Below, piece by piece: positions 4,569-61,329 of a stretch of DNA of 64,000 bases. The stretch covers positions 311,761 to 375,760 of the forward strand of contig PLZJ01000002.1 in the NCBI GenBank assembly GCA_003152105.1. The letters run 5' to 3'. Source of the DNA: Candidatus Levyibacteriota bacterium. Its GTDB lineage: Bacteria > Patescibacteriota > Microgenomatia > Levybacterales > UBA12049. Made by a program: the position numbers and the translations under genes. The number at the start of each line of letters is the position of its first letter. Positions within the stretch are counted from its first letter, which is position 1. The notes under the pieces were generated by a model. That model did not search any database. It was not told where the DNA came from and saw only the letters and a program-made list of their open reading frames with translations.

Positions 4569-5630
4569 ATGTTAAGTTATTTTACCAGTTTAGCCTTACA
4601 AGTCAAGAATAGATTCTCATGGTATAATAGCTTCATGTTTCAAACACTGCTCATACTTTTGTTACTGTGCATACCAACAATCCTTCTTATCTTACTTTAT
4701 AGAAAGATTTCCCAATTAAAGCAATCTGAGAACGATAAAACTTTATTTGAATGGCTCAAATCAATGCAGCAGTCAATGGATATTACTTCATCGTCAATGG
4801 TAAAAACGCTACAAGAGAATTCAAGGCAATTAAACGAAAGACTCGAAAAAGCTGCTGAAGCGATGTCGAACGTTGGAAAAGAAGTTGGTCAAATGAACGA
4901 AATTGGTAGAAACATGAGGGAACTTCAAGAATTTCTTAAAAGTCCAAAATTACGAGGCAATATAGGAGAGCAAGTGTTAAAAGATTTAATTTCTCAAATA
5001 TTTCCTAAAAACAGTTTCTATTTACAATATCAGTTTAAATCAGGTGAACGCGTAGATGCAGCCATAAAGACAGATGCCGGCATTTTATGTATTGACTCGA
5101 AATTTCCTATGGAAAACTTTCAAAAATTATCAAAATCAAAAAACGAACTAGAAAAAACTCAATATCAAAAAGAATTTGTCCGAGATATCAAAGTACACAT
5201 AGACTCAATTGCAAAAAAATATATTTTACCTATTGAAGGAACTATGGATTTTGCCCTTATGTATGTGCCTAGTGAATCAGTATATTATGAAATAATAAAT
5301 ATTTCTGAAATTATGGAATTCGCAAAACAAAAAAGAATTTATATAGTATCCCCAAGTACATTATATGCGCATCTACAAGTTATATTACTTTCTTTTGAAG
5401 GGAAAAAGATTGAACAACAATCTAAGGAAGTGTTTATCTTATTAAGAGCACTGCAAATTGATTACTCAAAAGTTAACGACTCCTTAGATATTATGGGTAA
5501 GCATTTAAGAAATGCTAATGAACAATTTACAAATGTTAAAGCAAATCATGCATCACTTGGTAGTAAGCTGAGTTCTATTCATCATCTGGAGTCAACTATT
5601 GAAAAAAAGGCAATAGATGAGAAAAAGTAA
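4569..5630 (+). CDS. rmuC: DNA recombination protein RmuC family (likely true start ATG 4635; N-terminal TM helix)
   Basis: N-terminal TM, coiled coil, then the RmuC C-terminal region (IDSKFPMENF..., MYVPSESVYYE). TGGTATAAT at 4619-4627 sits 7 nt before ATG 4635, which suggests a leaderless mRNA. Confidence 0.75.
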   Translation: MLSYFTSLALQVKNRFSWYNSFMFQTLLILLLLCIPTILLILLYRKISQLKQSENDKTLFEWLKSMQQSMDITSSSMVKTLQENSRQLNERLEKAAEAMSNVGKEVGQMNEIGRNMRELQEFLKSPKLRGNIGEQVLKDLISQIFPKNSFYLQYQFKSGERVDAAIKTDAGILCIDSKFPMENFQKLSKSKNELEKTQYQKEFVRDIKVHIDSIAKKYILPIEGTMDFALMYVPSESVYYEIINISEIMEFAKQKRIYIVSPSTLYAHLQVILLSFEGKKIEQQSKEVFILLRALQIDYSKVNDSLDIMGKHLRNANEQFTNVKANHASLGSKLSSIHHLESTIEKKAIDEKK

Positions 5631-6505: not shown

Positions 6506-9412
6506 ATGAATGAGGATAGTATTGTTTTAAATTCCGCGCAAATTAGTGCAATTACTCATGGTGAAGGACCATTACTTATCATAGCTGGAGCTGGGACCGG
6601 TAAGACTACTGTAATTACTGAAAGAATAAAATATTTAGTATTAGAGAAAAATATATTGCCAAAAAATATCTTGGCATTGACCTTTACTGAAAAATCAGCA
6701 GTAGAAATGACAGAGCGTATTGATAGCGTAATGCCGTACGGGTATACGCAAATGGCAATTTCCACATTCCATTCCTTTTGTGACCAAGTATTAAGAGCAG
6801 AAGCAATTCATATAGGTTTAAATCCAGATTATAGATTGGTTAGCGAGGCGGAATTAGTGTTATTTCTACAAAAAAACATAATTAAATTACAACTAGATTA
6901 CTTTATGCCACTTGGAAATCCTACCAAATTCTTGCAGAGCCTACTCCAGCACTTTAGTAGACTAAGAGACGAAGATATTTCGCCAAATGATTACTTGGAG
7001 TACGCTTCAAAAATTTCTAAAGAAAAAACTCTTGAAGTGGATGAGATAAGAAAGATACACGAATTGGCCAGAGCTTACGATGAGTTCGAAAAGTTGAAAA
7101 TTAAAGAAAGCATTATGGATTTTTCAAACTTGATATCTTCAACGCTACTTCTATTTAGAACAAGGAAAAACGTGCTTAAAAAATATCAAGAACTACATAC
7201 ATATATCTTAGTTGATGAATATCAAGATACGAACTACGCACAGAATCAACTTGCGTTGTTGCTTGCAGGAAAAAGAAAAAATATAACAGTGGTTGGAGAC
7301 GATGATCAGGCTATTTATAGATGGAGAGGGGCGGCTATAGCAAATATGCTAGCTTTTAGAAAAACATATCCAGAAGCTAAGGTAATATCATTAATTGAAA
7401 ACTATCGTAGTAGCAAAGAAATTCTTAATGCGGCTTATTCGTTAATTCAAAATAATAACCCAAATAGGTTAGAAGTGAGAGAAAATATCAATAAGAAACT
7501 AGTAGCGGCGAATAAACTAGCTGCTGAGAAGGTAACATTAATATTTGAAGAAAATAATGAAGACGAGGCAGATGCTGTAGCAAAGACTATATTAGACCTG
7601 GTGTCTAAAAAGAAATATTCATTTATAGATATTGCTCTATTAGTTCGCGCAAATGATCATGCTATTGCATTTACAAGATCTTTTGAAAGATTGGGAATAC
7701 CTTATCAATTTTTAGGTCCTACCCAGCTATTTCTGCAAGATGAAATAAGAGATTTGATAGCATATCTACAATTACTACACGATTTTGAAGATTCGATTGC
7801 CGTATATAGAGTATTAACGATGCCACAATTTTCAATATTACCAAAAGATATAGCCTTGCTGTTAAATTATGCTAAAAGAAATAATTATTCTCTGTTTGAA
7901 ACCTTAGAGCATATATCTGAACTCTCCTTAACGCAGTCGTCTAAGGATAAAATACAAGAATTATTGGATAATATTAAAAAGCATTTATCATTAGTTCCAA
8001 AAGAAACGGCGGGTCAAATATTATATAAATTTTTAGTATCAAGTGGATTATTACAATCTTTTGCTAGCCAAAGTTCTCAAGTCGATGAAGTGAAAGTCAA
8101 AAATATTGCTACCTTTTTTGATAAGTTAAAACATTTTGAAACTGAATTTAATGACGCTTCGGTTCATGGGGTTGTAAACTACATTTCTTTATTAGCAGAG
8201 TTGGGAGATAATACATCAACTGAAAATAATTTAGAGCAAAACATGGGAGTTTCAATTTTAACAGTCCATGCTAGTAAAGGATTAGAGTTTCCCGTTGTTT
8301 TTTTGGTTAATTTAGTATCAGAGCGATTTCCTACAAGGCAACGTAGTGAAACTATTCCAATTCCTCAAGAATTTATTAAAGAAGAATTACCTGAGGGGGA
8401 TTATCACTTACAAGAAGAACGCAGACTTTTTTATGTCGGGATGACAAGAGCAAAAAATAAATTATATTTAACTGGGGCAAAATACTATGGACAAGGTAAG
8501 CGTGAAAAAAAACTCTCACCGTATGTTTATGAAGTTTTAAGTAAGAGTGATATCGACGAGGCAATGTTAAAAAATGACAAAAATGATGATCAATTATCGC
8601 TTTTTAATTGGAGTAATATAAGTAGCAAAAATGAGTTGAATGTATCTCAGACTTATCAAAAGTTTCCGATAACATATTTATCATATTCACAAATACAAAC
8701 ATATGATATGTGCCCTTTGCATTATAAGTTGAAATACATATTAAAAATTCCTGTAATTAAATTATTTCCAGCTCCCAGTTTCGGAACTAGCATTCATGAG
8801 ACATTAAGGAAATTTTACCAAGCTGTTCTTGATGGGGAAGAAGGCAGTGTCGAACTAGCACTTTCAATACTTGAAAAGTCTTGGAGTCATCTTGGATATG
8901 AAAGTCGCGACCATGAAAAAAAAGCGTACGAAAGAGCAGTACATGTTATTAAACAATATGTAATAAATAACTTTGACGAGAATAATCTTCCTTTAAGTCT
9001 AGAAACACCCTTTATTTTTGGTGTTAAGGGATTGAAAATAGGTGGTCGTATCGATAGAGTTGATAAGACATCAGACGGGAAAATTGAAATTATTGATTAT
9101 AAGACAGGAAATAATATTCCAACACAAAGTGCGGTAGACAACAATTTACAACTAACAATTTACGCCTTAGCTGCAACAAAATTAAAAGATGCGCTTTTTA
9201 ATAAATCGTCAAGTGATATTGTATTAACGTTGCATTTCGTTGAACAAGACATAAAATTAACAACTACTAGAACGCAAACGGCGTTGGATGAAGCAGAAAA
9301 AATTCTCCAGGAAAAAGCAATTGAAATTGCAAAAAGTGATTTCCAGTGTTCCAAAAGCATATTTTGTAAATCATGTGAATATTCTTTACTCTGTTTTTCT
9401 CAAAGCACCTAA
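6506..9412 (+). CDS. single-polypeptide ATP-dependent helicase-nuclease: UvrD/PcrA-type SF1 helicase fused to a C-terminal PD-(D/E)xK Cas4/AddB-like nuclease with four Cys (likely Fe-S)
   Basis: N-terminal SAQISAI...AGAGTGKTTVITERI (Walker A, UvrD motif I), DEYQDTN (II), VGDDDQAIYRWRGA, HASKGLEFPVVF, YVGMTRAK (VI). C-terminal IDRVDK...IEIIDYKTG (nuclease motifs II-III) plus Cys at MCPLHYK and C-x6-C-x2-C-x5-C at the extreme C-terminus. Confidence 0.85.
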   Translation: MNEDSIVLNSAQISAITHGEGPLLIIAGAGTGKTTVITERIKYLVLEKNILPKNILALTFTEKSAVEMTERIDSVMPYGYTQMAISTFHSFCDQVLRAEAIHIGLNPDYRLVSEAELVLFLQKNIIKLQLDYFMPLGNPTKFLQSLLQHFSRLRDEDISPNDYLEYASKISKEKTLEVDEIRKIHELARAYDEFEKLKIKESIMDFSNLISSTLLLFRTRKNVLKKYQELHTYILVDEYQDTNYAQNQLALLLAGKRKNITVVGDDDQAIYRWRGAAIANMLAFRKTYPEAKVISLIENYRSSKEILNAAYSLIQNNNPNRLEVRENINKKLVAANKLAAEKVTLIFEENNEDEADAVAKTILDLVSKKKYSFIDIALLVRANDHAIAFTRSFERLGIPYQFLGPTQLFLQDEIRDLIAYLQLLHDFEDSIAVYRVLTMPQFSILPKDIALLLNYAKRNNYSLFETLEHISELSLTQSSKDKIQELLDNIKKHLSLVPKETAGQILYKFLVSSGLLQSFASQSSQVDEVKVKNIATFFDKLKHFETEFNDASVHGVVNYISLLAELGDNTSTENNLEQNMGVSILTVHASKGLEFPVVFLVNLVSERFPTRQRSETIPIPQEFIKEELPEGDYHLQEERRLFYVGMTRAKNKLYLTGAKYYGQGKREKKLSPYVYEVLSKSDIDEAMLKNDKNDDQLSLFNWSNISSKNELNVSQTYQKFPITYLSYSQIQTYDMCPLHYKLKYILKIPVIKLFPAPSFGTSIHETLRKFYQAVLDGEEGSVELALSILEKSWSHLGYESRDHEKKAYERAVHVIKQYVINNFDENNLPLSLETPFIFGVKGLKIGGRIDRVDKTSDGKIEIIDYKTGNNIPTQSAVDNNLQLTIYALAATKLKDALFNKSSSDIVLTLHFVEQDIKLTTTRTQTALDEAEKILQEKAIEIAKSDFQCSKSIFCKSCEYSLLCFSQST

Positions 9413-12580: not shown

Positions 12581-12719
12581 AAATTGCAGACAATAGCATG
12601 AAGTTGCTTAATAATTTATTTCACTGTGGTTTTAGTTGCAATATGTATCATAATTCACTAAAACGAACAACTACTATTGTCCTTGGACGTATTATACTAC
12701 ACATTCTGTTTTCTGGTCA

Positions 12720-13600: not shown

Positions 13601-14701
13601 TTACACATTTACTTCATCAATGGTATCTTTGGTATCTTCAATACCAACAGTTACTGAAGTTGGACGTGATTGAGTAAGTTCTTTAATTTTATCTACTATT
13701 TCTTTTGTTTGAGTAGGATTATTTTTAAGCCATTCCTTGGTATTTTCTTTTCCTTGCCCGATGACTTCATCGTTATATCTAAAGAATGCTCCGGCTTTTT
13801 TAATAACATTCATTTCTACTCCAACATCTAAAACTCCACCTTCTCGTGAAATACCATCTGTAGTCATAACATCAAATTCTGCAATTCTAAACGGCACTGC
13901 TACTTTATTTTTTACAATTTTGGCTCTGTGTCTTGATCCAATTGGTTTATCGCCATCTTTGAGAGATTCAATTTTTCTTACATCAATACGTACAGATGCA
14001 TAAAACTTAAGAGCAAGTCCTCCAGGAGTAGTTTCGGGATTGCCAAACATTATCCCTATTTTTTGTCGTAATTGATTGGTAAAGATAACTACTGTTTTTG
14101 ATTTAGAAATAACACCTGTTAACTTTCTTAGAGCTTGAGACATTAATCTGGCTTGTAATCCAATCATAGCATCTCCCATCTCTCCTTCTATTTCTGCTCT
14201 TGGAACAAGCGCGGCAACTGAATCAATAACAAGAACATCAATTCCTCCAGAACGAATTAATGATTCTGCGATTTCTAATGCTTGTTCACCTGTATCGGGT
14301 TGTGAGATTAGCAATTCTTCAAGTTTTATTCCAATTTTTTCCGCCCATAATGGATCAAGTGCGTGTTCTGCGTCTATAAAAGCTGCAACTCCTCCATGTT
14401 TCTGTGCTTGTGCTATTACAGATAATGAAAGTGTAGTTTTTCCTGATGCTTCGGGTCCATAAATTTCAATGATTCTTCCTCTTGGCAATCCTCCTACTCC
14501 TAATGCTAAATCAACAGGGAGAGAGCCTGTTGAAATAGTTGAAATATCTAACTTATTGCCAATTTCACCAAAACGCATTATGGCACCACGACCATACTGC
14601 TTTTCGATTTGTTCCATAGCCAGTCGAACTGCTTCTAGTTTTGGGGATAAGTGTCCATTTGTTGGTGGAGTTGCTTTTGTAGATCCTGCCTGTTTAGCCA
14701 T
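13601..14701 (-). CDS. recA: recombinase RecA
   Basis: Canonical RecA: [17 protein letters not shown] (Walker A), [23 protein letters not shown]. Confidence 0.95.
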
Positions 14702-14786
14702 CGCAGCACTATTGTAACACGCTTATGTTATAATGCAATAGGCAAAAAACAACAGTTTAACAATCTAATCTCTTTATATAGACTAG

Positions 14787-14814
14787 TAATTAGATTGGTA
14801 TAGTAATCTAATTA
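14787..14814. promoter_or_regulatory. perfect inverted repeat TAATTAGATT-N8-AATCTAATTA about 90 bp upstream of recA (candidate SOS/LexA-like operator). A third half-site-like copy AATCTAATC lies at 14762-14770
   Basis: Arms of 10/10 complementary bases at 14787-14796 and 14805-14814, in the recA / tRNA-Pro intergenic region. A putative recA promoter lies closer to the gene: TTGCAT-16-TACAAT, with the -10 ending about 9 nt before the ATG. Confidence 0.4.
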
Positions 14815-14831
14815 TAGTAATAATTTTTTAT

Positions 14832-14902
14832 CGGGGTATAGTTTAACGGTAGAATTTGCGGATGGGGTCCGTAGGGCAGAGGTTCAATTCCTCTTACCCC
14901 GA
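14832..14902 (+). tRNA. tRNA-Pro (anticodon GGG), hand-folded
   Basis: Acceptor CGGGGTA/TACCCCG, T-arm AGAGG-TTCAATT-CCTCT, anticodon stem TGCGG/CCGTA with loop ATGGGGT (anticodon GGG at 14864-14866), discriminator A. No encoded CCA. Confidence 0.7.
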
Positions 14903-15046
14903 CATAAAATGTGCTAGATTCTTTTTCGAACAAAAATATTTTTTTAATGAATTATTTAGTAAATGATCAACTTGTGCTCAAAAGTATTATGTGATTAACT
15001 TGAAGTGGATTTATAAAACCATTGATACTTATTACGTAGAAGGGAG

Positions 15047-15253
15047 GTGAATAAGATGTTTAAAAAAAGAATAGCGCGTTATGATTTTTGGGACATAGGA
15101 TTGATAAAATTAACAAGTTTTACGGTTGCCTTATTATTTGTTTCATTTTTTAATGGGTTTGCCGCTTGGGTTCAGTCGATAAATCCATTTTACTTATTAT
15201 TACTAGTAATTCTATTTGCAGCAAGACCTGGATATAAATTCTTCAAAAAATAG
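15047..15253 (+). CDS. small membrane protein (likely start ATG 15056, preceded by GGGAGGTG SD)
   Basis: Strong Shine-Dalgarno sequence 6 nt upstream of ATG 15056. Two hydrophobic helices. No family recognised. Confidence 0.4.
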   Translation: MNKMFKKRIARYDFWDIGLIKLTSFTVALLFVSFFNGFAAWVQSINPFYLLLLVILFAARPGYKFFKK

Positions 15254-37460: not shown

Positions 37461-37506
37461 CCTATATATAATTGCATTTTATCATACTGACTCGTATGAT
37501 ATTTTT

Positions 37507-38115
37507 ATGTTTGAAAAAGCATTAGTACATTTTAAAAAGGTTGATAAAGTGCTATACCTGGTTGCACAAAATAGCAAACCGATAAGGTTACAGACTTCAA
37601 ATGATTTATTTGATAGTATTTGCAGAGAAATAATCGGCCAACAATTATCTGGTAAAGTTGCAGATACTATATATAAGAGATTTATTGAATTATTTCCACA
37701 TCAAAAACCAACGCCTACTGCAATTAGCTTATTGAGTGCTGATCAACTACGAAATGTCGGAATGTCTTGGGCTAAAGTGCGTTCATTATTAGACTTAACA
37801 GATAAAATTACTACTTATAAGTTAAATATAAATTCTCTCGAGAATTTAGATAATGAGTCAATAGTTTTGGAACTTACAAAGATAAAAGGAATAGGGCCCT
37901 GGACCGCAGAAATGTTTCTCATGTTTGCATTAGCCAGAGAAGACGTATTTTCACCAGGAGACGTAGGATTAAAAAATGCAATAACCAAACTTTATAAGTT
38001 AAAAGAAAAACCTGATGAAAATAAATTGCTTGCTATATCGAGAAAATGGATTCCTTATAGAACGTATGCGTCAATAATATTATGGAACTTTTTAGATAAT
38101 AACCTCCAAAAATAA
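37507..38115 (+). CDS. HhH-GPD superfamily DNA glycosylase (AlkA / 3-methyladenine glycosylase II-like). The true start is ATG 37507, not the track start 37297
   Basis: ...LTKIKGIGPWTAEMFLMFALAREDVFSPGDVGLKNAI... (helix-hairpin-helix plus Gly/Pro loop plus catalytic Asp). The upstream part of the track ORF overlaps the LmbE gene on the other strand. Confidence 0.75.
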   Translation: MFEKALVHFKKVDKVLYLVAQNSKPIRLQTSNDLFDSICREIIGQQLSGKVADTIYKRFIELFPHQKPTPTAISLLSADQLRNVGMSWAKVRSLLDLTDKITTYKLNINSLENLDNESIVLELTKIKGIGPWTAEMFLMFALAREDVFSPGDVGLKNAITKLYKLKEKPDENKLLAISRKWIPYRTYASIILWNFLDNNLQK

Positions 38116-38137: not shown

Positions 38138-38752
38138 TTATGAGAGTGCTAAAAATGTATTAGCTTGAAGCGGAATTTTTGGTGTAGGTTTTTTTCTCAA
38201 GTGTAGTGTGTCTTTGTTTCCAGATGCTCCACCCAATAGCCGCACAATCATTATCGCAGGGTCTTTTCCTGAAAAGCCTTGATGATATATTTCGGGCTCG
38301 ATTTCGTGTGTGTTTCCTGGTAGTAGTAATGTGCTACCCAAAGATATTAGTTGATGATCCCTCATTCTATACTGCGCAATCTCTAATGGGCCGGATTTTT
38401 CTCCGGGAATTATGTAATACAATTCATCCGGTTGATTGGCTGGTTTTTCATTAAAGGCATGGTTGTGTAATGAAGTGTTAGCATAGGAAGGAAGACCAAG
38501 AACATAGATTCTATCCTTACCGCTAATTTCTCCGTCAATAACATAAAATGCATCAGACCCTTCATGTCTTATAAATTGCGTAAATGTGGAAAAATGTTCA
38601 TCCAATTCTTTTTTTGAAAAAACATTTTGTAAAACGAGCTCATTGATAAGCGTTTGCTTCCATTCAAGACCTAACCCCTCTCTAAATGGATTTACTATTA
38701 GTGAAGTACCCATGTGTTCGCCCATATGTTGCTTGTCATTTTCTGCCTTCAT
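38138..38752 (-). CDS. hypothetical protein (possibly cupin-like)
   Basis: 204-aa soluble ORF with His-rich patches (HNHAFNE, HEIEPEIYHQG). No confident family assignment. Confidence 0.35.
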   Translation of the reverse strand: MKAENDKQHMGEHMGTSLIVNPFREGLGLEWKQTLINELVLQNVFSKKELDEHFSTFTQFIRHEGSDAFYVIDGEISGKDRIYVLGLPSYANTSLHNHAFNEKPANQPDELYYIIPGEKSGPLEIAQYRMRDHQLISLGSTLLLPGNTHEIEPEIYHQGFSGKDPAIMIVRLLGGASGNKDTLHLRKKPTPKIPLQANTFLALS

Positions 38753-38844
38753 GAAAAATTATTCTATCATTTACGTTTTTAGTATACAATTTATCATAAA
38801 ATGTATAAACAAAGTGCTTTACAATCCAAAAATTATGTGTTATT

Positions 38845-57385: not shown

Positions 57386-58069
57386 CTAAATGTGCTTGCC
57401 AAGAATCAGGGGCTCATAGCTTCGAGCGTCTTGTAGCAACTGTTCACGTGCAATACCGGCCTTAGCGCGAATTTTCAAACCCTGCACTAGGTCAACGAGC
57501 GCACGACTTCGCACCTTGGCAGAAGGTGTTCGAGTCAGACGACCTGCCTTTATCTCCTTTTCGAAACGTATCGCGAAAATATCAGCAGATTCATTGAGGG
57601 CTTTTGCGACAAATATACGTATCTCCGTTACACGCTCCGACTGTCCCAGCGTAGCGGAAAGCATCAGGCAACCGGCACGACCCTCACTCGAAGCGGTGTT
57701 GACAGTAGCCTCACAAAGGGCCGCTACAGCCTTATGGATATCCGGCTCCGCTCGAAAATCTGCCAGCATGGCTGCTCCATACGTTATTGCATAGCGCTCA
57801 ACCGCCTTGAGTAGTAGGGTTGACTTGTTTCCGAAGGCTCGGTAAATCGCGGGTTTGGTGACATTCACAGCCCGTGCGATCCGATTTACGTCAACTCCTT
57901 CATACCCATGTTCCCAAAACATCTCAACGGCACGATCGAGGGCTTCGTCAGGGATAAAGCTTTTTGGACGTCCTGGTGTTCGGTTTGTTGTATTAGTTAC
58001 CATAGAGTATGAAATTGGTCCTTGCATTACACTTTTTATTATTATACTCTTGAGTATGTAATACATCAA
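57386..58069 (-). CDS. TetR/AcrR family transcriptional regulator (GC-rich, foreign-looking composition)
   Basis: An N-terminal HTH ...LDRAVEMFWEHGYEGVDVNRIARAVNVTKPAIYRAFGNKSTLL... and an all-alpha C-terminal domain. Codon usage is GC3-rich, unlike the flanking genes. Confidence 0.8.
   Translation of the reverse strand: MMYYILKSIIIKSVMQGPISYSMVTNTTNRTPGRPKSFIPDEALDRAVEMFWEHGYEGVDVNRIARAVNVTKPAIYRAFGNKSTLLLKAVERYAITYGAAMLADFRAEPDIHKAVAALCEATVNTASSEGRAGCLMLSATLGQSERVTEIRIFVAKALNESADIFAIRFEKEIKAGRLTRTPSAKVRSRALVDLVQGLKIRAKAGIAREQLLQDARSYEPLILGKHI
58044..58057. promoter_or_regulatory. palindrome ATACTC-TT-GAGTAT overlapping a TATACT -10-like box in the 23-bp tetR/SDR divergent junction. Candidate TetR operator
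   Basis: A 6-2-6 perfect inverted repeat inside the AT-rich divergent promoter region between the tetR start (58069) and the SDR start (58093). Confidence 0.3.
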
Positions 58070-58092
58070 GTCAGTTAAACAAAGGAGACTAT

Positions 58093-59097
58093 ATGGATAC
58101 GATCAAAGAAAAAACAAGTCGACCCTCACTTTCTACAATGAAGAAATCTATCAAACATTCGATCGCACTCATCACCGGTGCCACCTCAGGGGTCGGTTAT
58201 GCGGCTGGCCGCATGCTCGCCATCGAGGGCTACCGTCAGATCATCGTTACCGGACGCAGTCTGGCCCAGATTCAAGAAACGGCCGCTCAGCTCGCGGCTG
58301 AGACCAAGATACAGGTCTTCACGCCGCTGGAACTGGAGCTGGATAGTGTATCCAGCGTTCAGTCCTTCCTCGCCGAGCACGTCAAGCGAGGTCAGCCGGT
58401 CGACTTCCTACTGCTCAATGCAGGAATCATGGGACGTAAGGAACTCAAGCTCACTGCGGCAGGAATAGAGATGTCTTCGGCTCCGCTCATCGGCCATCAT
58501 CAACTGACTGTCGGGTTGCTCCGCGCCAAGCTGTTGAGCCCGAATGCTCGAATTGTTATTGCCAGCTCGGAAGCTGCCCGAGGTGATGTACCCCTGTTCA
58601 GCTACACCGATGTAGCGGCCTTCGCGGCCAAATACTTCCAGGGTGACCGAACCGCTGCTGTGGAAGCCTTGTTGCATAGCGGACCGAATGTAAAATATCA
58701 GCCCAACCGGGCGTTCGCAGATGCGAAACTAATCGGTACTTTGTGGGTAGCTGCACTGGCTCGCCGGCTGCCCTCCGGCATGGCGATATATGCCGTTTCG
58801 CCTGGTGCCGCGCCTGCCACCAATGCGGTGCGAAACGCAGGTCTCCTTACGAGATTGGTGCTGATTCCACTGACGAAGCTTATCCCCGGCATGTCTCATA
58901 CTCCTGAGACCGCGGCCCGTCGGTATCTCAATGCATCGGAATTCGGAACCGACGTTTCGGGTCAATTCTTCGCATCGCCGCCCAAGAAGTTAACCGGCCC
59001 AATCGAGGCAATGCGCCAACCACACTTTCACGATCGAGCCAACCAGGAAGCCGCGTGGCAGGCCGTCGTCAAGGTTACGGGCGTCGATTTGTCTTAA
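58093..59097 (+). CDS. short-chain dehydrogenase/reductase (SDR) family oxidoreductase (GC-rich)
   Basis: ...IALITGATSGVGYAAGRML... (TGxxxGxG), ...LLLNAGIM... (NAG), and AAGGAG Shine-Dalgarno before ATG 58093. Divergent from the TetR gene. Confidence 0.8.
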   Translation: MDTIKEKTSRPSLSTMKKSIKHSIALITGATSGVGYAAGRMLAIEGYRQIIVTGRSLAQIQETAAQLAAETKIQVFTPLELELDSVSSVQSFLAEHVKRGQPVDFLLLNAGIMGRKELKLTAAGIEMSSAPLIGHHQLTVGLLRAKLLSPNARIVIASSEAARGDVPLFSYTDVAAFAAKYFQGDRTAAVEALLHSGPNVKYQPNRAFADAKLIGTLWVAALARRLPSGMAIYAVSPGAAPATNAVRNAGLLTRLVLIPLTKLIPGMSHTPETAARRYLNASEFGTDVSGQFFASPPKKLTGPIEAMRQPHFHDRANQEAAWQAVVKVTGVDLS

Positions 59098-59466
59098 CCA
59101 GCATCCTTGAGAGCGGTGTTCTGAAATTCTGAAATTAAATCACTGGTTTCTTTACGTATCCCAGCTTGTTGCTGTCTATTTTGCTCTATAGTTTACCCAA
59201 GTGGGCTTAATTAGTTGTGTTGAAACTAATGATCCAATTGGCGGCAAATTTTTGACGAGCTTTTCAATTAGCTAGGACACTCAAGTTCAGTATTATATAC
59301 TATAAGACTGTTAATGAGCCTGTAAGTCATGACTTATCAGTGTCTCATTTGTCTCACTAAGCCTGTATAAGAGACATCGCTATAATGATAATATGGGTTT
59401 AGACCGCTATACTCAGGGATTGCGGATTCGGCCGAAGCTATTTGGTACCTATTTAAATGACAGTTC

Positions 59467-59492
59467 AAAAAATGTCATTGGCCTCAATTAGC
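59467..59492 (+). repeat. copy 2 of the secA-terminus direct repeat (aaaaaatgtcattggcctcaattagc)
   Basis: See copy 1. It lies about 370 bp after the SDR stop and just before an AT-rich spacer. Confidence 0.7.
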
Positions 59493-59724
59493 CTAACTTT
59501 ACTTTTATACAATTATTGCCTTAATTACTATTTATGATTTTTTCCAAAAGAAAAAACCACCCTTTATTATTATCCGCTTACGCGGTCCCAAGAAGGGAAG
59601 GATGGTTTAGATATTCAATTGTAGATTTGTGCAGCCGAAGCTGGATTGATAACGGGATCATCCGTCTTGGTCGTCGAATTGACGCTCAAGCCCCATGGAG
59701 ACCATGAGTTTATGTGATATTCAG

Positions 59725-60645
59725 TTATTTGGTTGGCGTCGACGATCCGTTCCCGAGACTCCCCAAGTTGAAGAGATTGCCCGAGTTGTTCGGAAGGACG
59801 TAGACCTTCGCTTGTCCGTAGAGGCTCTGTACCGCCTGGATCGAGAGATATCTCAGCACCTGCGGTGAAAGCGACTTGGTCAAGAGGGAGTTAGCCTTTG
59901 ATTGGCCTTCTGCCTTGGCGATGGTAGCCCTACGAGCTCCTTCAGCTTGTGCAACGACTTGTTGCGCTTGAAGTTGAGCTGTTTGAACCTGCTGGGCCGC
60001 GATCTGTTTTGCCTCGATGCTCTGCTCGAACTGCTTGCTGTAGTTGAAGTTTGAGATAAGTAGATTGTCTACTATAATCCCATTCTTCCCAAGATCAGTC
60101 GTGAGAGCATTCTGGATTTTGACAGAAAGCTGAGCTCGATTCGGAGCGATCTCCACCGTGTGGTAGTGAGATACTTGCTCCTTCACGTCTTGCTGGACTT
60201 GGTTTGGTACCAAGACATCGAACCAGTCAACTCCAAAATCTCGGTAGAGATGTTGAAGTTTGGTCGGATCGAGATGGTAGTTCAGCTGGACATCAAACGT
60301 TAGAGTCTGAGACTCCTTCGAGAACGCGTTGATGTTGTTTTCCGTGAACTTCTGCGTCTTGACGTTGGCGGTGTGGACCGAATTCCAAGGTGCGACAAAG
60401 TGCGTTCCCGATTGAAGGGGAGACCCGCTAAGTACACCGGAATAGTTGTAGACCATACCGACTTGCCCGGTTCCGATGTTTTGGATCGATGCTATGAAGA
60501 AGATCACAAAATACAGAACCACTGTAGCTCCGGCGGCCGCCCATCCTGCACCTTTTTCGCCTGTTGTTTCACCGAAGAGACCGAATGCCAGTCCGAGAAA
60601 GATGATGATGAGTCCGACGACAGTTAAACCGATCCATAGTGCCAT
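59725..60645 (-). CDS. SPFH / band-7 (stomatin-prohibitin-HflK/C-like) membrane protein (GC-rich)
   Basis: N-terminal TM helices, then ...GQVGMVYNYSGVLSGSPLQSGTHFVAPW... and a long Ala/Gln coiled-coil tail (...AQQVQTAQLQAQQVVAQAEGARRATIAKAEG...), typical of SPFH domains. Confidence 0.8.
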   Translation of the reverse strand: MALWIGLTVVGLIIIFLGLAFGLFGETTGEKGAGWAAAGATVVLYFVIFFIASIQNIGTGQVGMVYNYSGVLSGSPLQSGTHFVAPWNSVHTANVKTQKFTENNINAFSKESQTLTFDVQLNYHLDPTKLQHLYRDFGVDWFDVLVPNQVQQDVKEQVSHYHTVEIAPNRAQLSVKIQNALTTDLGKNGIIVDNLLISNFNYSKQFEQSIEAKQIAAQQVQTAQLQAQQVVAQAEGARRATIAKAEGQSKANSLLTKSLSPQVLRYLSIQAVQSLYGQAKVYVLPNNSGNLFNLGSLGNGSSTPTK

Positions 60646-60887
60646 GTGCGTTCAACTCCTTGTTGTTATTTCGGCATTGATCGAACTACTTTTAGTGCTA
60701 CACGTTTCACCCTCCATTTTGTTATTTGTTGTCTTCTCATTTATGCCCATGATAGATTATGGATTAGTACAAATATTTATACTTTTGCATAAAAAAGAAG
60801 ACAACTTTTCTCAGCAATTGAGAGTTAATAAAGGATGTCCTACAATTAAATGTAAATGTGCTACTAAATTCCCTATAGGGTATTTAG

Positions 60888-60944
60888 TAATACAGGATTA
60901 TATACTGAAAACATGAAATTGTCAATATTATAGGATTAAAATTA
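60888..60944. repeat. AT-rich repeated motif, copy A: ..TACAGGATTATATACT.. AAATTGTCAATATTATAGGATTAAAATT. Copy B is at 61899-61927, and a third TACAGGATTAAT is at 63899-63912
   Basis: The shared core is AAATTGTCAA-N5-7-TA(c/t)AGGATTA(t/a)AT. The copies lie in the spacers that flank the GC-rich SHOCT gene patch. Confidence 0.5.
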
Positions 60945-61068
60945 TTGAAGCTAAAGGGAGTGCGCGGGGGTTGTTGTAGCTAGAGTAGCTAAGATCTGTA
61001 GCTTGAATCACAGATTGTCCAGATGGACCAACACCCCACACGCGGCGCACATCTTTGTTGCGGGTTAC

Positions 61069-61329
61069 TTACGCGCTTGAACTTGGTCGATGAACGACAT
61101 CTTTAACCTTTTGTTCATAGGTTGGGAAGTCCATCTCGCCTGCAACGTATTTGTCTTGAAGAGACTTGATCGTATCTTCTTCGGATCCGAGTTCCTGCTC
61201 CTTCGCTTGGAGAGTTTTCTCCTTAGCTTTCACCTTGGAACGTTGTTTCCTCAAGTACCCGATGAAGAAGATTCCTCCACTACCGAGTAAGAGCATGCCT
61301 ACCACGACATCAAGTAGATCTCTTAGCAT
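61069..61329 (-). CDS. SHOCT-domain small membrane protein (GC-rich)
   Basis: N-terminal TM (LLLGSGGIFFIGYL), then ...LQDKYVAGEMDFPTYEQKVKDV..., resembling the short C-terminal SHOCT domain. Confidence 0.5.
   Translation of the reverse strand: MLRDLLDVVVGMLLLGSGGIFFIGYLRKQRSKVKAKEKTLQAKEQELGSEEDTIKSLQDKYVAGEMDFPTYEQKVKDVVHRPSSSA

Follow-up and report, generated by a model that had tools for sequence, protein, structure and literature searches.

Regulators such as CRP and Fis act from activator or architectural sites upstream of a promoter: CRP sites of the class I-type activator lie near -61.5, and Fis sites are found upstream of stable-RNA promoters. Signals and insertions associated with stable RNA genes include the boxA antitermination motif known from E. 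coli rrn leaders, and the rRNA intervening sequences (IVS), which carry the gene of a 23S rRNA-IVS protein (Pfam PF05635). To our knowledge, almost nothing has been learned from experiment about transcription control in uncultured Patescibacteria. An SOS network with its LexA motif has reportedly been described for this group, by Sanchez-Osuna, Barbe and Erill in 2017 (Environ Microbiol 19:3465). LexA motifs vary widely between phyla, and Bacteroidetes, for example, have the non-canonical motif CTAA-N5-TTAG (PMC8565304). Bidirectional promoters are another class of compact regulatory region: in the work of Warman et al. 2021, as it is presented in PMC10268837, one pseudo-symmetric -10 element serves both directions and the two start sites lie 18 bp apart. 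Here we compare with these systems the region between recA and a divergent tRNA-Pro gene in a 64-kb stretch of Levybacteria DNA, which we call the window.

The recA/tRNA-Pro locus

The window has a G+C content of about 33% and encodes a RecA protein that is 68-82% identical to its counterparts in metagenome-assembled genomes of Candidatus Levybacteria and other Microgenomates (Patescibacteria/CPR). The exact protein is also found on a 1.139-Mb scaffold (WOOD18-1_SAMN07125042_METAG-scaffold_5) of ENA sample ERZ28653421 and on short contigs from three other runs, in which the 300 nt upstream of the ATG are identical too. The recA gene (13601-14701, minus strand, 366 aa) has recX and the RNase Y gene downstream and is divergent from a tRNA-Pro gene with anticodon GGG (14832-14903, plus strand), a synteny observed in 101 of 147 loci. 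The window also contains the repair genes rmuC (4569-5630), a UvrD/PD-(D/E)XK helicase-nuclease gene (6506-9412) and an HhH-GPD glycosylase gene (37507-38115). No candidate regulator gene was found near the recA/tRNA-Pro locus.

Far from this locus, positions 58000-61300 form an island of 40-49% G+C (versus about 33% elsewhere in the genome), which carries a TetR regulator, a short-chain dehydrogenase and an SPFH/Band 7 gene, the last of these being followed by about 1.2 kb without any ORF of 90 aa or more. This island may have been acquired horizontally.

A predicted leaderless promoter for recA

On the recA strand, TTGCAT (14738-14733) is followed by a 16-nt spacer, by TACAAT (14716-14711) and, 9 nt further on, by the ATG, as a previous reading of this DNA from its sequence alone (hereafter the sequence-only reading) had described. 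As TACAAT is preceded by TGT, it belongs to an extended -10 element, TGTTACAAT (14711-14719, minus strand), while the -35 hexamer (14733-14738, minus strand) overlaps by 2 bp the -10 element of the tRNA promoter described below. No Shine-Dalgarno sequence precedes recA, and its predicted 5' UTR is 0-3 nt long. If a leaderless gene is taken to be one whose -10 element ends some 6-12 nt before the ATG, with no Shine-Dalgarno in between, then the 9 nt observed in the window fall well within this range.

This organization is widespread. A promoter of the form TTGnnn-16/18-TAnWWT lies no more than 45 nt from the ATG in 111 of 136 distinct orthologous upstream regions, and its -35 hexamer is TTGTAT or TTGCAT in 77 of these 111, a Shine-Dalgarno-like word being found between promoter and ATG in six. 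In 104 of the 136 distinct loci the promoter ends 6-12 nt before the recA ATG, mostly at 9 or 10 nt, and in many loci the start codon is fixed by in-frame stops located 3-12 nt upstream. Because the position of the promoter is kept across orthologous loci, the leaderless or near-leaderless transcript proposed in the sequence-only reading is well supported in the window, and the prediction that the recA promoter is leaderless is strongly supported across Levybacteria. Distant Microgenomates (Gottesman- or Woesebacteria-like loci) have longer leaders with a GGAG-type Shine-Dalgarno instead.

Other start regions were noted in passing. On the minus strand, TTGTAT-17-TAGAAT (38753-38789) precedes an unannotated ORF of 204 aa (38138-38752), with 8 nt between this sequence and the ATG, for which reason leaderless starts seem common in the window genome. 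A small ORF at 15056-15253 has a strong GGGAGGTG Shine-Dalgarno, contrasting with the leaderless starts nearby. Finally, a second class of recA promoter, devoid of the tRNA block discussed in the next section, occurs in L011, L017, L040, L116, L126, L130 and L131. These promoters have a conserved GTTC(G/T)AGAA and a CTAGAA direct repeat between -35 and -10, and a repeated TTGACCTAT upstream; this arrangement could be an operator in that sub-lineage.

A tRNA-Pro promoter predicted back-to-back with the recA promoter

Upstream of recA, the block TTGyATTwTAnCAwAAAnnTGnTAnAAT is conserved throughout the lineage. Its first part, TTGyATTwTAnCA, is the reverse complement of TGnTAwAAT(G/A)CAA, and the window version of the latter, TGTTATAAT (14726-14734, plus strand), is the reverse complement of the conserved ATTATAACA block. 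Read in this direction, TGTTATAAT has the features of an extended -10 element for the divergent tRNA-Pro(GGG), with a predicted start near 14741. The distribution of the block fits this assignment: TTGyATTwTAnCA is present in 30 of the 32 loci in which a divergent tRNA-Pro lies within 70 nt of the ATG and in two of the ten loci in which the tRNA is on the same strand, and recA promoters without the block are accompanied by a separate TGnTAwAAT, 9-20 nt from the tRNA. The 753 kb of loci contain 91 occurrences of the block upstream of recA and seven elsewhere, of which four adjoin a tRNA-Pro(GGG) located more than 0.8 kb from recA. Among the loci with a divergent tRNA, 77 of 94 contain a match to TGnTAwAwT; the (A/G)CAA flank beside it is strongly conserved even though it was not part of the search pattern. 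TGnTAwAAT is thus conserved and moves with the tRNA, as would be expected of an extended -10 promoter of the sigma-70 type, and on this comparative evidence TTGyATTwTAnCA represents the extended -10 element from which the divergent tRNA-Pro(GGG) is transcribed, joined back-to-back to the recA promoter. The distance between this predicted promoter and the tRNA is 8-25 nt in 35 loci, versus 97 nt in the window, which belongs to a long tail of the distribution.

We also considered whether TAACA-N6-TGTTA, a dyad located between the -35 and -10 elements of the recA promoter, is a real LexA box, and rejected this candidate. The central base of each half varies freely, without symmetry, and the left half, which is the TGn extended -10 of the other strand, follows tRNA-Pro and not recA. 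As judged from these comparisons, the dyad consists of two extended -10 elements that face away from each other and is not an operator.

Directly upstream of the recA -35 hexamer lies TAGGCAAAAAA (14739-14749, plus strand; TTTTTTGCCTA on the recA strand). This block is almost invariant in the clade of the nearest relatives (one variant, in L166), and may be an UP-element-like sequence of the recA promoter or else, with respect to the tRNA promoter, the initial transcribed region. In another part of the window (37472-37506), a TTGCATTTTATCA block is again found, in the 46-bp gap between the divergent genes of a PIG-L deacetylase and the HhH-GPD glycosylase. It contains a perfect palindrome with 7-nt arms, ATCATAC-N6-GTATGAT, which corresponds to two outward-facing -10-like hexamers. 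The ATG of the glycosylase gene stands 6 nt after its -10, and this gene is also predicted to be leaderless.

Anatomy of the palindrome

The sequence-only reading had reported a perfect inverted repeat with 10-nt arms and an 8-nt loop, together with a third half-site, and both are indeed present. The palindrome occupies positions 14787-14814 of the plus strand, with a left arm TAATTAGATT (14787-14796), a loop GGTATAGT (14797-14804) and a right arm AATCTAATTA (14805-14814), the arms being 100% complementary. From its centre it is 31.5 nt to the 5' end of the tRNA and about 97 nt to the predicted start of recA, the palindrome being upstream of both. The extra half-site, AATCTAATC, occupies 14762-14770 and is separated by 16-17 nt from the recA side of the palindrome. 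This half-site and the right arm are two direct copies of the same sequence, while the left arm is an additional, inverted copy.

Perfect inverted repeats with arms of at least 10 nt and loops of at most 20 nt number five in the window, against 2.75 +/- 1.6 in Markov-1 simulations. The full palindrome pattern, when up to three mismatches are allowed, occurs once in the window (0.03 expected), and a 10-nt arm is unusual within the 97-nt spacer in which it lies (p = 0.005 versus shuffles). In addition, three of the nine copies of AATCTAAT found in the window fall within 53 nt. Given these chance tests and the clustering of AATCTAAT, the local repeat structure is therefore non-random, the palindrome alone being only mildly so. 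Overlapping the end of the palindrome, TATAGT (14813-14818, plus strand) might conceivably act as a weak -10 close to the tRNA; neither a TG nor a -35 accompanies it.

Three further interpretations were set aside. An intrinsic terminator is out, as there is no G+C-rich stem directly before a U run: the stem has a single G-C pair, the T run begins 6-10 nt past it, and a scan of 14500-15100 gave 0 terminator sites. A phage or mobile-element att-like site was rejected as well, no match being found in the viral contigs searched. A dispersed palindromic repeat of the REP/MITE type would have many copies in the genome, and the 64-kb window contains one copy of the palindrome. Lastly, 8-mers in common with the D-arm and a 43-nt spacing had suggested that the spacer arose by tandem duplication of the 5' part of the tRNA, but this similarity is not significant (Smith-Waterman p = 0.23) and the spacer gives no clear signal of 43-nt periodicity.

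A direct repeat shared by the nearest relatives

A protein search identified contigs L165-L168 as the nearest relatives (RecA 81-88% identical). As L165 ends 51 nt upstream of the ATG, the four-genome comparison consists of the window, L166, L167 and L168. These four have the long spacer in common and their spacer sequences align; the spacer is not shared by L169 and L170 (RecA 80-81% identical). The identity of recA four-fold sites among the relatives is 36-49%, i.e. saturated, and two control intergenic regions keep promoter elements only. The holin/rny intergenic region (12581-12719) was used as a control for neutral divergence. There, the promoter region of rny (RNase Y), ATTGACCA...TGTAGTATAATAC, is the sole island conserved between the window and L165.

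Two units stand out in the aligned spacers. The proximal unit, AGTTTAACAATCTAATC (14754-14770, plus strand; TTAGATTG on the recA strand), contains the third half-site and is located exactly 30 bp upstream of the recA -35 hexamer in the window, L166, L167 and L168. The distal unit includes the palindrome loop, four columns of which are invariant among the four genomes, and its core is the palindrome right arm, which reads TAATTAGATT on the recA strand and lies 73 bp upstream of the recA -35 in the window. Across the four genomes, the distal TTAG(A/C)TT is found 73-75 bp upstream of TTGCAT. In its fuller form the unit reads TTAG(A/C)TT(G)nTTWAAC on the recA strand. The distance from unit to tRNA varies (17-56 nt), while the distance to the promoter stays fixed. 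Over columns -12 to -93, aligned without gaps, nine columns are invariant, against 3.2 +/- 1.7 in shuffles (p = 0.003), and the best 12-column stretch is the proximal unit (40/48, against 31.6 +/- 1.5 in shuffles; p < 0.0002), although these statistics are thin, since the element is found in four genomes only.

Besides the window, only L167 retains the inverted copy that completes the palindrome. Ten of the ten arm positions pair in the window and nine in L167, where two double compensatory changes are included, versus six in L166 and about three in L168. Because the inverted arm decays in L166 and L168, what the clade conserves is a promoter-anchored direct repeat and not a palindrome. A PWM built from eight unit sites retrieved no further good match in the approximately 7 kb of intergenic DNA of the window. 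On the genomes compared, the motif is confined to four or five closely related uncultured Levybacteria, a genus-level clade.

Islands of sequence maintained at fixed promoter offsets, despite saturation at neutral sites, point to function. From this pattern, the AATCTAA motif seems to be a real cis-element, and the element as a whole is probably a functional, clade-restricted upstream repeat.

A candidate protein-binding repeat

What this function might be is addressed here with caution. We tentatively favour the idea, which we consider possible though short of probable, that the units are bound by a sequence-specific protein acting on the recA/tRNA-Pro promoter pair. The region consists of two layers. 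The first, present across Levybacteria, is the predicted leaderless recA promoter TTGCAT-16-TGTTACAAT, placed back-to-back with the tRNA-Pro extended -10 TGTTATAAT. The second, present only in the genus-level clade, is a spacer of about 95-135 bp inserted between the promoter pair and the tRNA gene and carrying two direct copies of a unit of about 15 bp (TTAGATTGnTTAAAC on the recA strand; ...AATCTAA... on the plus strand). Relative to the predicted recA start, the two copies are at about -62 and -105; on a tRNA transcript beginning at 14741 they would be at about +22 and +65. In the window the extra inverted half-copy turns the distal unit into a perfect palindrome. A protein bound there would act from upstream of recA, in an activator, architectural or looping position, and the units would not be a promoter-occluding operator of the LexA type. 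The anatomy of the units, their conservation and their fixed offsets are direct observations; the binding of a protein, with any regulatory effect that it may have, is what we infer from them.

A much more specific proposal, namely that a clade-specific, LexA-independent candidate regulator of recA uses the TTAGATT units as its operators, binds the palindrome with high affinity and acts from upstream of the leaderless promoter, appears quite improbable at present. If it were true, this regulator would couple the expression of recA, and perhaps of tRNA-Pro, to DNA damage or to growth state.

Possible neutral filler at an insertion hot spot

The spacer could also be non-functional AT-rich filler, in which a motif of 8-10 nt was duplicated locally in inverted orientation to give the palindrome, the likeness among relatives being residual ancestry. 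We regard this as rather unlikely. Synonymous sites are saturated, control intergenic DNA is scrambled except at promoters, and yet two islands keep both their sequence and their exact offsets, which makes neutral filler appear less likely than function in the four genomes. On the other side, the window has five comparable palindromes versus about 2.8 expected, the motif is absent outside the clade, and from its length variation the spacer is, by all appearances, an insertion hot spot across Levybacteria: between tRNA-Pro and the recA ATG there can be as few as 44 or more than 500 nt, and the sequences are unrelated. Part of this variation takes the form of heptad repeats and of an inserted gene. 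At least 11 loci (L008, L014, L029, L033, L041, L094, L096, L097, L124, L144 and L145) carry, between tRNA-Pro and its promoter, a gene of about 120 aa for a PF05635 (23S rRNA-intervening-sequence) protein, flanked by complementary heptad arrays (TTAGTCn on the 5' side and GACTAAn on the 3' side; 13-42 nt complementary). This insertion looks like an rRNA-type IVS cassette located in a pre-tRNA leader.

We rejected the window element as a member of this heptad-repeat/IVS family: TAGTC-type hexamers are enriched 6.5-fold in other spacers and the TAGAT type of the window is not enriched, and no PF05635 gene was found in the window. Two side observations concern repeats in other loci. In L007, L079 and L102, a conserved GGGACAAAACCnnnCGGTTTTTTCCCnACGATTTTCCC followed by a hairpin with 10-bp arms stands beside the 5' end of tRNA-Pro, with an apparent compensatory change between the L007 and L102 hairpins. 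In loci L001-L080, 7 is the commonest tandem-repeat period (72 of 402 low-threshold TRF rows), many period-7 arrays being located at least 1.3-1.5 kb downstream of the recA start, past the recA CDS; the window genome has few such arrays.

A possible element of the tRNA-Pro leader RNA

The main rival to protein binding is a role at the RNA level, in the tRNA-Pro leader, which we hold to be unlikely in its turn. The element would here belong to a pre-tRNA-Pro 5' leader of about 91 nt (14741-14831), transcribed from the TGTTATAAT promoter, in which the palindrome hairpin and the repeated CAAUCUAAA motifs would influence processing, stability or anti-termination until the leader is cut off by RNase P. 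The fixed offsets of the units are equally compatible with such a leader element, and the only canonical tRNA-Pro promoter in the window is indeed 97 nt from the tRNA, where 8-25 nt is the rule. As to structure, the two double compensatory changes keep the stem in L167, but pairing falls to six of ten in L166 and about three of ten in L168. Over the four sequences, 70% of the arm cells pair, versus 61% in shuffles, a level reached by 26 of 500 shuffles. Long spacers elsewhere are rich in hairpins (8 of 27 with p <= 0.05; mean MFE z-score of -1.6), whereas shuffled sequences fold as well as the window leader (z = -1.5) and RNAalifold found no consensus structure in the four leaders. Other Levybacteria do have, in at least 11 genomes, the IVS-like cassette with its complementary repeat arrays at this very site.

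Several specific forms of RNA element were rejected along the way. No known RNA family is involved as far as Rfam is concerned, the tRNA being its sole match; the lack of consensus pairs in RNAalifold dismisses a conserved structure in the four leaders; and leader-trailer pairing, which would form a processing stem around the tRNA, is at chance level (p = 0.17-0.92 versus shuffles). A boxA-like motif, TTTAACAAT, was rejected as well, since neither L167 nor L168 keeps the part of the unit concerned.

The SOS-operator hypothesis

The sequence-only reading had proposed the palindrome as the SOS-type operator of this lineage. Palindrome and half-site would in that case be bound by a LexA-like repressor controlling recA together with other repair genes, which we find very improbable. 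The hypothesis is attractive at first sight: the site lies upstream of recA, its dyad symmetry has the size of an operator, the half-site motif is kept in the nearest relatives, and LexA motifs are known to differ widely among phyla (PMC8565304). None of these points, however, speaks for SOS control in particular. The palindrome is, as had been stated, unlike the E. coli CTGT-N8-ACAG and Gram-positive GAAC-N4-GTTC boxes. On reading, it matches none of the six LexA motifs tested (these two, TTAC-N3-GTAA, GTTC-N7-GTTC, TGTTC-N4-GAACA and GTAC-N4-GTAC), and these described motifs are absent or at control level in the 136 recA upstream regions.

Distribution, position and conservation all argue against the hypothesis. 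With at most one mismatch in 16 core positions, none of the 136 regions examined upstream of recA in Levybacteria/Microgenomates contains the palindrome, and the half-site, with two occurrences in 33.6 kb against 3.4 in shuffles, is not enriched; a lineage-wide operator was rejected on these counts. What is conserved upstream of recA in related genomes is the unit, in L166-L168, and not the palindrome; the unit itself is kept only in the three or four nearest relatives, and the inverted arm is dispensable in L166 and L168. The sites do not overlap the core promoter but are centred upstream of it, at about -62 for the proximal unit and at -97 to -105 for the distal one, the palindrome centre being some 97 bp from the predicted start. 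In the 64-kb window, no copy precedes the uvrD-like, rmuC or glycosylase genes. Lastly, tblastn searches with the B. subtilis and E. coli LexA proteins detected no LexA gene in the window or in the first 80 recA loci (L001-L080), and a protein search with B. subtilis LexA returned only Bacillus LexA.

Implications

These results remove a tempting false lead, in that the palindrome is not a lineage-wide SOS box, and the Levybacteria recA upstream regions lack a known LexA box (for the motifs tested, in 136 regions). The more general finding is a predicted leaderless recA promoter which, in Levybacteria, shares DNA with the promoter of tRNA-Pro(GGG). If recA is constitutive in these bacteria, or under the control of a factor other than LexA, this would bear on the way in which reduced genomes handle DNA damage. 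The conserved upstream repeat of one small clade, for its part, provides a defined target for binding assays.

Comparison with known systems

The palindrome resembles LexA operators in its dyad symmetry, in its length of about 28 bp, in its position upstream of recA and in the recurrence of its half-site nearby. Unlike them, its conserved unit is a direct repeat, with copies about 44 bp apart, and the palindrome shows neither overlap with the core promoter nor conservation in the whole lineage, nor were regulon copies seen in the window. The likeness to rRNA IVS is of another kind: the insert of the window, which contains a stem, is found at the tRNA-Pro leader site where other Levybacteria loci hold a PF05635 gene. 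The window has no such gene, and homology is only suggestive.

Parallels also exist with sites of the CRP and Fis type, as the units, centred around -62 and -105 from the predicted recA start, keep a fixed helical offset from the -35 hexamer and stand beside an A/T tract. They differ from these sites in having no similarity to the CRP or Fis consensus and in lying also downstream of a divergent tRNA promoter. As for the promoter pair itself, it can be compared with the bidirectional promoters of Warman et al. 2021 (in the account given by PMC10268837), with which it would share divergent transcription from one compact pseudo-palindromic region, here TAACA-N6-TGTTA. Instead of the shared -10 element described there, however, the recA/tRNA-Pro region appears to have two separate extended -10 hexamers, 12 bp apart; the predicted start sites are about 37-40 bp apart rather than 18 bp; and the recA -35 overlaps the tRNA-Pro -10, i.e. 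the two promoters would be arranged back-to-back.
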